Origin: a virus
Lineage: Duplodnaviria > Heunggongvirae > Uroviricota > Caudoviricetes
IMG/VR virus record: IMGVR_UViG_2687453466_000005
Reading direction: 5' to 3' (one strand)
Length of the DNA: 14,169 nt
The notes under the pieces are model-generated. The model was not told where the DNA came from. It saw only the letters and a program-made list of their open reading frames with translations, and did no database searches. The position numbers were made by a program, and so were the translations under genes. Below, piece by piece: positions 406-1,697 of this stretch; position 1 is the stretch's first letter, and the number at the start of each line of letters is the position of its first letter.

Positions 406-610
406 CTAAAGTTGGATACTTAAGAAATGCTTCATAATTCAGTAAGGCATTAGCATAATGGAAATAAAAGTGCAGAGACTATCTCTATGGATGATTAATA
501 CTGTCTTTTTATTGTCACCCATAAATAATCACCAGACTAATACTATCAACTTGATATTTGAAATGTGATCACTTGACTTTTGATACGTTATTTTATAACG
601 GTTAACATAT

Positions 611-664
611 TTATAAAAACAACGGCCGTGCCACACGTCCGTTTCAATACTTAACGCACATGTA
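611..664. repeat. Copy A of a ~50-bp terminator-like segment (imperfect hairpin AACGGCCGTG/ACGTCCGTT plus conserved flank TCAATACTTAACGCACATG); near-duplicate of 1474-1524
   Basis: Direct comparison of the two segments by eye shows about 80 percent identity including the stem arms and the flank. Confidence 0.4.
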
Positions 665-1103
665 TTTTGGTTTAGTCATCATCCGGTTATATGTATTTTA
701 GCCAGGAACAGGTTAAATCATTCCTATATAACTCAAAAATTGAAACCTTATTCTCATGTCATGCTTATATTCATTATTATCGTTATATAAAAAGGCAACC
801 ATAATGTTTAGCAAATTGGCACAAAGTAGCATAAAGGCTATGTTTTAATTACAGGATGTTCAGTCATTTGAATGTATAACATTATAGCTAAACAAATCTA
901 AAACGAAGTCAATAATTTATTGCTTTCACAAAATCTCATTTTGTTTAACATCCATTGAGATTCCTTGCTTTAAATTTTATTTTATATAAGCCATCATTTT
1001 AATTAATTTATTTTTTTGAGGGGGGGTAATATACTCATATGCAAAATCAAGAAATAAACATCCTAATGAACCATATTAAATACCGTGGGATAAGACATAA
1101 CAA

Positions 1104-1427
1104 ATGAAGTGGATAGTAATTGACACGGTAATTCAACCTACATGTGGTATATCTTTTTCAGCCATATGGGGTAATATGAAAATGATCATCTGGTATCAAT
1201 CTACTATATTTCTCCCTCCTGGCAGTATATTTACACCGGTTAAGTCTGGTATTATCCTTAAGGATAAAGAATATCCTATTACTATTTATCACATCGCACC
1301 ATTCAACAAGGATTTATGGAGTTTACTCAAAAGCAGTCAAGAGTGTCCTCCAGGAGAAAGCAAAATAACAAATAAATGTTTACATAATAGTTGCATTATA
1401 AAAATATGCCCATATGGGCTCAAGTAA
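1104..1427 (+). CDS. iraM: Anti-adaptor protein IraM (stabilises RpoS against RssB/ClpXP)
   Basis: 107-aa ORF; translation [18 protein letters not shown]... recognised as IraM/YcgW; gene order ycgX-iraM-icdC matches the K-12 e14 flank in reverse orientation. Confidence 0.7.
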
Positions 1428-1483
1428 TGGGCTTCATATAAATATGCTCGATATGCTATTAATAATATCCACATAAATAAAAC

Positions 1484-1506
1484 AACGGGCGTGTTATACG
1501 CCCGTT
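1484..1506 (-). terminator. Rho-independent terminator hairpin downstream of the icd-derived fragment (possibly bidirectional, also closing iraM)
   Basis: Perfect 9-bp stem AACGGGCGT/ACGCCCGTT with 5-nt loop; on the minus strand it is followed by GTTTTATTTAT; lies between convergent iraM (+) and icdC (-). Confidence 0.5.
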
Positions 1507-1529
1507 TCAATATTTAACACATGGAGAGA

Positions 1530-1697
1530 TTACATGTTTTCGATGATCGCTTCACCAAACTCTGAACATTTCAGCAGCTTAGCGCCTTCCATCAGACGTT
1601 CGAAGTCATAAGTTACGGTCTTGGCATTGATTGCGCCTTCCATACCTTTAACAATCAGGTCAGCCGCTTCAGTCCAACCCATATGGCGCAGCATTAG
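1530..1697 (-). pseudogene. icdC: icdC: displaced 3' fragment of isocitrate dehydrogenase gene, marking the e14 attachment site
   Basis: Minus-strand translation reads [55 protein letters not shown]-stop, the Icd C-terminus, with no start codon and an in-frame stop immediately upstream (about 1698-1700). Confidence 0.8.

Follow-up and report, generated by a model that had tools for sequence, protein, structure and literature searches.

Why should the terminator-like hairpin at the 3' end of icd, the isocitrate dehydrogenase gene of Escherichia coli, occur a second time 863 bp away, on the far side of iraM? This question is raised by one end of the IMG/VR virus record IMGVR_UViG_2687453466_000005 (Caudoviricetes), whose 14,169 nucleotides are the window referred to throughout this text. 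Positions 1-2400 of the window are essentially identical to E. coli K-12 DH5alpha, one 1-nt gap excepted, and carry in order ycgX, ymgL, a first copy of the hairpin unit (copy A), ymgK, iraM, a second copy (copy B), the displaced icd 3' end (icdC), and the prophage e14. We found that the repeat is real, that its two copies are homologous, and that they are the exact boundaries of an 863-bp presence/absence polymorphism containing ymgK and iraM. The repeated element can be identified as the icd 3' untranslated region with its predicted intrinsic terminator, and it corresponds to the outermost ~50 nt of the icd-surrogate module, ~218 bp long, with which icd-integrating elements are equipped. Our explanation, to which we assign a probability of about 0.6, is that copy A is the worn end of an older module of the e14 type and that the arrangement arose by repeated integration at icd. 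The features on which the argument draws are as follows.

1-405, plus strand: ycgX (DUF1398), from the annotation of the identical K-12 record; the outer neighbour of the repeat
458-568, plus strand: ymgL, a small open reading frame (ORF) from the RefSeq annotation, whose 3' end overlaps the decayed arm repeats
563-601, no strand: three decayed e14-type integrase arm-like repeats (atgtgatcactt, ttttgatacg, attttataacgg)
613-664, no strand: copy A of the icd terminator unit; stem 621-630 with 634-643, loop 631-633, a C.T mismatch in K-12
665-1476, plus strand: the ymgK-iraM cassette, between copies A and B
804-848, plus strand: ymgK, inside the cassette
about 1039-1074, plus strand: 5' remnant of an ariR-like gene, inside the cassette
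1104-1427, plus strand: iraM, convergent to icd, inside the cassette
1477-1524, minus strand: copy B, the presumed working icd terminator; stem 1484-1492 with 1498-1506, loop 1493-1497
1530-1697, minus strand: icdC, the original icd 3' end displaced by e14, annotated as partial isocitrate dehydrogenase; stop codon 1530-1532
about 1694-1700: e14 crossover region, at the end of icdC
1813-1822, plus strand: a perfect TTTTGATAAC on the other arm of e14, within the prophage and ~120 nt away from the crossover
from mcrA onward, to lit at the window end: e14 prophage

The homology of the two copies is plain. Positions 616-658 and 1479-1521 form an ungapped direct repeat of 43 nt with 36 of the 43 bases identical (84%) and a start-to-start spacing of 863; a gapped local alignment lengthens it to AAAACAACGG...CACATG, and with strain variants included the homologous block covers 613-664 and 1477-1524, stopping about 6-8 nt short of the icd stop codon. 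When both strands of the remaining window were searched with 300 dinucleotide shuffles of copy A, the shuffles scored 22.8 +/- 2.1 with a maximum of 30, compared with 53 for the genuine pair, which is ~14 standard deviations (sd) above them. The similarity extends over the loop and the flanks and is not confined to the stem. The first-pass annotation, which was made from the sequence alone, had placed the two elements at 611-664 and 1474-1524, quoted their stems, and called them closely alike; its positions and stems were correct, and the formal alignment bears out the resemblance. The best proof of its biological reality does not depend on statistics: natural iraM-less strains join the left flank of copy A to a single unit and then to icd. 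The usual signatures of transposition were not found: the repeats are ~50 nt long and just 84-92% identical, unlike a transposon target-site duplication, the inverted-repeat list holds no terminal inverted repeat pairing 665-700 with 1440-1476, and the ORF list of the window contains no transposase for the cassette. An Rfam search of the unit gave no meaningful family match.

The likely identity of the unit can be read from the elements that use icd as a target. Phage 21 and e14 insert within icd and bring a substitute 3' end with them (Hill, Gray and Brody 1989, as cited in PMC6379469). Both carry a module with the same order of parts (GenBank AF017626, OL657228), which runs from integrase arm repeats through the terminator unit and the last 165 nt of icd to the crossover core. 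In its curated genome record, phage 21 has a tyrosine integrase, the attP subsites P1P2P3 (consensus YYTTCCCCAAAA), a 'terminator', and an 'ICDH-like' pseudogene; the annotated terminator is the unit studied here and the pseudogene corresponds to the last 53 codons of icd. The free phage ev017 has the same layout, and in a prophage of strain 57_142493 the integrase gene lies directly outside the unit, the integrase region including the unit being 98-99% identical to phage 21 and to free phage-21-like genomes. At its own icd-proximal end, the e14 of K-12 likewise presents three TTTTGATAA(C/A) repeats, the unit, and then the icd 3' end. A four-way alignment of K-12 copy B with icdC, the e14 module, the ev017 attP, and the corresponding region of strain E02 showed homology that begins at the unit's outer edge, spans the icd 3' end, and is lost after TGGCGCAGCA, in the crossover region. 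In the window, copy B lies immediately downstream of the icdC stop codon, at a distance of 5 nt, as the terminator does in the module, and copy B together with icdC (1530-1697) reproduces the ~165-nt icd 3' end running to the core. This agrees with reports from the late 1980s, which are said to have described extended homology at the e14 attachment site.

Set beside phage 21 and e14, copy B plus icdC is the classic displaced chromosomal half, the A/B unit is the sequence that phage 21 holds between its P1-P3 arm sites and its icd pseudogene, and the arm-like repeats of copy A are of the e14 type and stand in the expected position. The differences are that copy A is without an icd part, a core or an adjacent integrase, that the interval between A and B is an 863-bp cargo remnant and not a prophage, and that the hairpin in e14's own unit is distinct and fully compensated.

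The outer flank of copy A points to an older module. The repeats at 563-601 (TTTGATAAC-like) are colinear with the three TTTTGATAA(C/A) repeats found just outside the terminator in e14, in the e14-like element of WP7, and in strain EC42405. In local alignments controlled by dinucleotide shuffles, the ~55 nt outside copy A matched these three e14-type arm regions with p = 0.0043, 0.0017, and 0.0040, and in all three comparisons the order of the repeats and their distance to the unit were as expected; their position is also that of the annotated P1P2P3 attP subsites in phage 21. The outer flank of copy A retains three decayed e14-type arm repeats, which would once have bound an integrase. The same flank gave no match to phage-21-type arms (p 0.92). 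The single unit of the iraM-less strains discussed below has the same arm relic, yet it is contiguous with the icd 3' end. A pattern search with TTTTGATAA, allowing at most one mismatch, returned 17 matches where 6.8 +/- 2.7 were expected, and the perfect TTTTGATAAC at 1813-1822 may be an IntE arm site. A 49% MAFFT match between the icd 3' end and the sequence to the right of copy A was at chance level and was set aside.

The two hairpins have had different fates. On the minus strand, copy B has a perfect 9-pair, G+C-rich stem followed by GUUUUAUUU, as an intrinsic terminator should; the terminator scan reported 9 pairs (6 of them G-C) and then GTTTTATTTA, and the predicted fold is -16.3 kcal/mol on this strand (z = -4.6) and -15.3 kcal/mol on the plus strand. 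Copy B is therefore predicted to be a strong intrinsic terminator for icd, and it is the sole hairpin downstream of the convergent iraM. The first-pass annotation held that the stem changes in copy A largely preserve pairing. This does not hold for K-12, where both stem differences fall on the same base pair and turn the G-C of copy B into a C.T internal mismatch, so that copy A folds with only -9.7 kcal/mol on the plus and -10.2 kcal/mol on the minus strand and yields at most a weak, 5-pair partial stem in the terminator scan. In most E. coli the stem of copy A is intact: the commonest type has CGGGCGTGCCATACGCCCG with -15.3 kcal/mol on both strands, and across five sampled alleles (L074-L077, taken from the commonest identity band of a scan with a 63-nt query, plus L078) it differs from copy B only by the loop GCCAT for GTTAT, TACTT for TATTT, and AACGCACATG for AACACATG. 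The loop GCCAT, TACTTAAC, and AACGCACATG serve as markers of copy A.

Lineage-specific stem substitutions were found in copy A of the Shigella type (GGGTG), of L048 and L073 (ACGTCC), and of LHM10-1 (CGCCTG), and the K-12 stem combines the L073 change with an additional G-to-C at the same pair. Given the intact stem in most E. coli, the K-12 changes are a decay within the K-12 lineage. By comparison, the B-type hairpin AACGGGCGTGTTATACGCCCGTT is identical in 16 distinct icd-adjacent haplotypes from chromosomes and phages, phage 21 included, despite 3-24 differences, in a mosaic pattern, in the linked 172 nt of icd. Constraint on copy A is relaxed relative to this invariant hairpin, which we count in favour of the fossil-module explanation. 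The three independent single stem hits in copy A are all C-to-T on the plus strand, where G.U pairing is kept (-13.1 to -14.2 kcal/mol) and the minus-strand hairpin is broken (-9.9 to -11.3 kcal/mol), a hint that copy A now matters, if at all, as a plus-strand structure terminating ycgX-ymgL. It could act as a terminator or insulator between these genes and the long AT-rich region upstream of iraM. The e14 unit offers a different picture: its hairpin AACGGGAGCG...CGCTCCCGTT (-18.1 kcal/mol) is fully compensated, and the exchange of GGGCGT/ACGCCC for GGGAGCG/CGCTCCC is true covariation between module families. As a further observation, when this unit (L069 1228-1268) is set against the B type (1477-1524), the flanking motifs AAAACAACGGG and ATTTAACA are conserved.

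The ymgK-iraM cassette is polymorphic in the species. Its 811-bp interior is present in 3,944 of 5,426 complete E. coli genomes, and a contiguous iraM-less junction with a single unit was found in 1,037 (E02, NGF1, and 1,035 others), in the order ycgX, ymgL, arm, one unit, icd 3' end. These include ATCC 11775, ATCC 25922 (Seattle 1946), and sequence type 131 (ST131), which we take to belong to phylogroup B2. A third architecture, typified by EC42405, occurs in 19 genomes, which by subtraction leaves about 430. In the O157:H7 genomes that were examined, a phage-21-like prophage abuts icd and ycgX-iraM was not detected. Both copies of the unit occur beside a full-length icd in strains free of e14, so the A/B pair is unrelated to e14 itself, and a link to that prophage has no support.

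EC42405 is arranged differently from K-12. From the ycgX side it has ycgX, the ymgK region, an ariR-like gene, iraM, and a different hairpin terminator, followed by trkG, insertion sequence (IS) elements, a hypothetical gene, a well-preserved e14-type arm, a B-type unit, and icd; ymgL, the decayed arm and copy A are missing. The stretch between its iraM and icd (L067 9001-17110) contains trkG, IS100 and IS5 fragments, and a 455-aa hypothetical gene; trkG is a gene of the Rac prophage in K-12. Formally, K-12 is the union of the B2 and EC42405 architectures. K-12 is also without 436 bp that carry an 84-amino-acid (84-aa) gene of the YmgB/AriR family, which LHM10-1 keeps between ymgK and iraM (L003 2532-2786); a stub of the first ~11 codons is left in K-12, and the gene is intact upstream of iraM in both LHM10-1 and EC42405. 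Between K-12 and LHM10-1, identity within the cassette is 78% on the left and 95.5% on the right. The ycgX allele of EC42405 is 11% diverged, and when it serves as outgroup, the other E. coli alleles split into iraM-less and iraM-positive sister clades; this tree alone is uninformative on gain versus loss, and the iraM-positive outgroup leans slightly to loss. Two further observations concern insertions at the locus. In Z142-2 (L078 1-65), foreign sequence with a hairpin at its end (ccccagcctagctggggg) reaches exactly to the outer edge of copy A, and the iraM-less DETEC-P649 has an IS200C copy in its ycgX-icd interval. Junctions seem to recur at the outer edge of the unit.

Where the cargo itself came from is indicated by its paralogs. 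IraM is a member of the Pfam family PmrD (PF11183), and paralogs with 57-70% amino acid identity lie in lambdoid prophages between the antiterminator gene Q and nanS-p, in one case directly beside stxAB. In a phage collection, 45 records, mostly phages encoding Shiga toxin 2 (Stx2), had a match over at least 80% of IraM. For YcgX, a paralog with 70% identity was found in a lambdoid prophage of E. albertii (L062 5001-5405), between Rz-type lysis genes and the terminase gene nu1. These prophage-borne paralogs and a G+C content of 26-35% in the ycgX-iraM interval support the earlier suggestion that ycgX and iraM were horizontally acquired. The homology covers coding sequence only: no unit was found beside the prophage paralogs of iraM or ycgX, and no phage homolog of the non-coding parts of the cassette was found. 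Among side observations on these genes, the prophage iraM paralogs (L010 3206-3541, L006 4001-4324, L008 4001-4327) lie on the opposite strand between Q or stxAB and nanS-p, some phage records already label the gene iraM, and the ycgX-like and iraM-like prophage genes have the same relative order and orientation as ycgX and iraM in K-12. The YcgX homologs of E. albertii and Escherichia sp. E10V10 were also considered as orthologs and rejected, since they are paralogs located in a prophage and at the fliT-yedD locus.

How such a locus might have arisen can be outlined as follows. Each integration would rebuild a complete, terminated icd and push the resident 3' end and its terminator outward. 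Because the elements carry arm, unit and icd 3' end as one block, a single-unit state must once have existed, and the primitive state would have been ycgX, ymgL, arm, unit, and icd, as in B2 strains now. Later, the cargo of ymgK, the ariR-like gene and iraM, together with a second unit, would have been placed between the unit and the icd 3' end; the likeliest route is that a further icd-targeting element integrated at the core together with the unit, the icd 3' end and the cargo that it carried, and that an internal deletion then removed the element backbone and the displaced icd 3' end. In the present K-12 locus, copy B would be the unit now joined to the icd 3' end, terminating icd and facing the convergent iraM, and copy A would be the older module end, with three arm repeats outside and its icd part lost. 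Copy A would no longer serve icd; it is probably kept in most strains as a plus-strand terminator for ycgX-ymgL and may be decaying in K-12. The two direct repeats could also recombine and delete the cassette, so the present iraM-less allele either goes back unchanged to the ancestor or has lost the cassette secondarily; since iraM is present in the outgroup haplotype, parsimony leans slightly to loss. The pure B-type unit that is observed would follow from a crossover within the first ~15 identical bases.

Several results weigh against this explanation. The single unit of the iraM-less strains is B-like at every site that distinguishes A from B; if it is a retained ancestor, copy A must have gained three substitutions and one indel later, and if it is a deletion product, the crossover must lie within the first ~15 nt of the unit. 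With EC42405 as outgroup, iraM looks ancestral, which complicates a single-insertion story. No icd remnant was found to the right of copy A when 130 nt were compared with the icd 3' end (p = 0.35 in K-12 and 0.95 in LHM10-1), and the model, which predicts a displaced icd 3' end, therefore requires its complete deletion. No match to e14-type or phage-21-type arms was found in the outer flank of copy B (p 0.56-0.79), and no integrase or other element genes lie between ycgX and icdC, where only cargo-type genes occur. Recombination has made the icd 3' segments a mosaic (3-24 differences per 172 nt) that does not partition by architecture, so the donor elements are untraceable. The plus-strand asymmetry of the copy A stem hits comprises three events and has a chance probability of 0.125. 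The idea in the first-pass annotation of a relic of integration at the icd hotspot stands in outline, carried by module membership, the decayed arms, and the prophage paralogs.

A different history would need only one step. A small iraM cassette, or a circle that had been excised from another haplotype, may have inserted into a B2-like single-unit locus by recombination inside the unit, with A and B as the resulting attL and attR; the crossover could have been site-specific or homologous, of the Campbell type, and the divergent bases of copy A would then derive from the incoming DNA. The boundaries of the indel fall exactly on the repeats, copy B matches the single-copy unit at every diagnostic site and copy A differs, as a crossover at the outer edge (AAAACAACGG) would have it, and this edge is also the junction at the phage 21 arm, at the iraM flank, and at the IS-like insertion of Z142-2. 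However, no integrase, element ends, or copy of the cassette that is free or at an alternative site was found; each genome has the cassette once at this locus and matches it in no more than 2 places, its non-coding parts lack homologs in phages, and the prophage iraM paralogs share coding sequence only, without the unit. Moreover, the cassette of EC42405 lies on the other side of arm and unit, which would require a second, independent insertion. We consider this history unlikely. A related and bolder proposal, that the outer edge of the unit (AAAACAACGG) is a recombination site and ymgK-iraM a minimal mobile cassette, or more broadly that icd-ycgX is a layered stack of cargo, strikes us as distinctly improbable; in its layered form, successive icd-targeting elements may leave cargo behind, each layer being closed by its own terminator unit.

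The terminator could also have been duplicated locally, with no mobile element, through unequal crossing-over, replication slippage, or gene conversion between haplotypes. The coexistence of three architectures in E. coli, with K-12 formally the union of the other two, and the strong mosaicism of the interval (78% against 95.5% identity, K-12 versus LHM10-1) would suit such a process, but it leaves unexplained why e14-type arm repeats stand at copy A and why phage 21 and e14 share the unit, and it needs an illegitimate join, since the unit is the only homology flanking the cassette. We give it little credence.

As for a dispersed repeat, a scan of 5,402 genomes with a 63-nt query around copy A found the unit at a median of 2 and a maximum of 4 places per genome, and every copy that was examined belonged to the icd locus or to an icd-targeting prophage, which refutes the small dispersed repeat family that had been offered as an alternative; the tens to hundreds of scattered copies typical of repetitive extragenic palindromic (REP) sequences or bacterial interspersed mosaic elements (BIMEs) were not seen in these genomes. 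A degenerate 19-base pattern matching both copies was further searched in one genome each for 185,579 species. Six stretches had E. coli-like or phage-21-like flanks, including E. coli itself (two copies, 864 nt apart), Shigella flexneri, a phage-21-like prophage in another Escherichia, and two contigs of gut metagenome-assembled genomes (MAGs) with E. coli-like or phage-21-like sequence; the remaining four matches had unrelated flanks and no hairpin. In a viral-contig collection, the same pattern gave 38 stretches, all flanked by ycgX-icd or phage-21-type sequence. The two MAG contigs, assigned to Sutterella (L016) and Veillonella (L017), carry phage-21-like or E. coli B2-like icd-locus sequence and are probably binning contamination. 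That the unit is a REP-like repeat, or that two unrelated terminators are alike by chance or convergence, is hardly credible: both copies are G+C-rich hairpins between A and T runs, as is common among terminators, but the low copy number, an alignment score ~14 sd above shuffles, the shared loop and flanks, and the lack of an Rfam match speak against it.

The fossil-module explanation also places the locus among known systems. In grounded prophages with repeats derived from the attachment (att) site, such as DLP12 at argU with its 47-bp repeat (PMC6379469), foreign, AT-rich cargo lies, as it does here, between imperfect direct repeats that derive from the target gene's 3' end, and the cargo has paralogs in active prophages. 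The present locus differs in that the repeat lies wholly downstream of the target's stop codon, that all recognisable phage genes are gone, and that the repeats enclose iraM, which is well established as a regulator of RpoS stability. Copy B further resembles the bidirectional terminators found between convergent genes, as it lies between icd and iraM and has a 9-bp hairpin between an A run and a T-rich run; unlike them, its plus-strand U tract (UUUCAAUAUUU) is poor, so termination of iraM there is putative.

Three side observations concern neighbouring sequence. The mcrA gene of e14 (1928-2761, minus strand) has a 1-nt deletion at 2240, GCCCTC to GCCTC relative to DH5alpha, which splits it into ORFs at 1928-2182 and 2215-2760 and could be a strain-specific frameshift or a sequencing error. 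At the 3' end of iraM (1407-1418), the 9-mer CCCATATGG equals the 9-mer before the e14/phage 21 crossover in icd (CCCATATGGCGCAGCA, 1683-1694); it is not conserved in the EC42405 allele of iraM and is probably a chance match. The small protein YmgL, whose gene runs into the arm relic, has been detected (VanOrsdel et al. 2018, PMC6001520).

Overall, repeated integration of phages at an already known hotspot has left a tidy footprint at this locus, with no new kind of element and no new mechanism. The icd modules of phage 21 and e14 and the icd hotspot have long been known; in the literature on iraM, icd, and the prophage, we found no prior description of a duplicated terminator around iraM or of the arm-repeat relic. 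A small oddity of the K-12 map is explained by a familiar process, in which elements integrate at icd and replace the 3' end of the gene, and the terminator copies can be used as stratigraphic markers for successive integrations at the hotspot. IraM is an anti-adaptor under the control of PhoP and H-NS that stabilises RpoS, and Bougdour and colleagues reportedly described it in 2008 as a regulator of RpoS stability. The gene now gains an evolutionary context, as it belongs to an 863-bp cassette bracketed by direct repeats and missing from about a fifth of complete E. coli genomes. Since well-known B2 strains are among those without it and its paralogs lie beside stx in Shiga-toxin phages, the cassette bears on strain differences in RpoS control. 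If the layered-stack proposal is true, IraM would be domesticated phage cargo, and its paralogs in Stx phages may still manipulate RpoS in enterohaemorrhagic E. coli.

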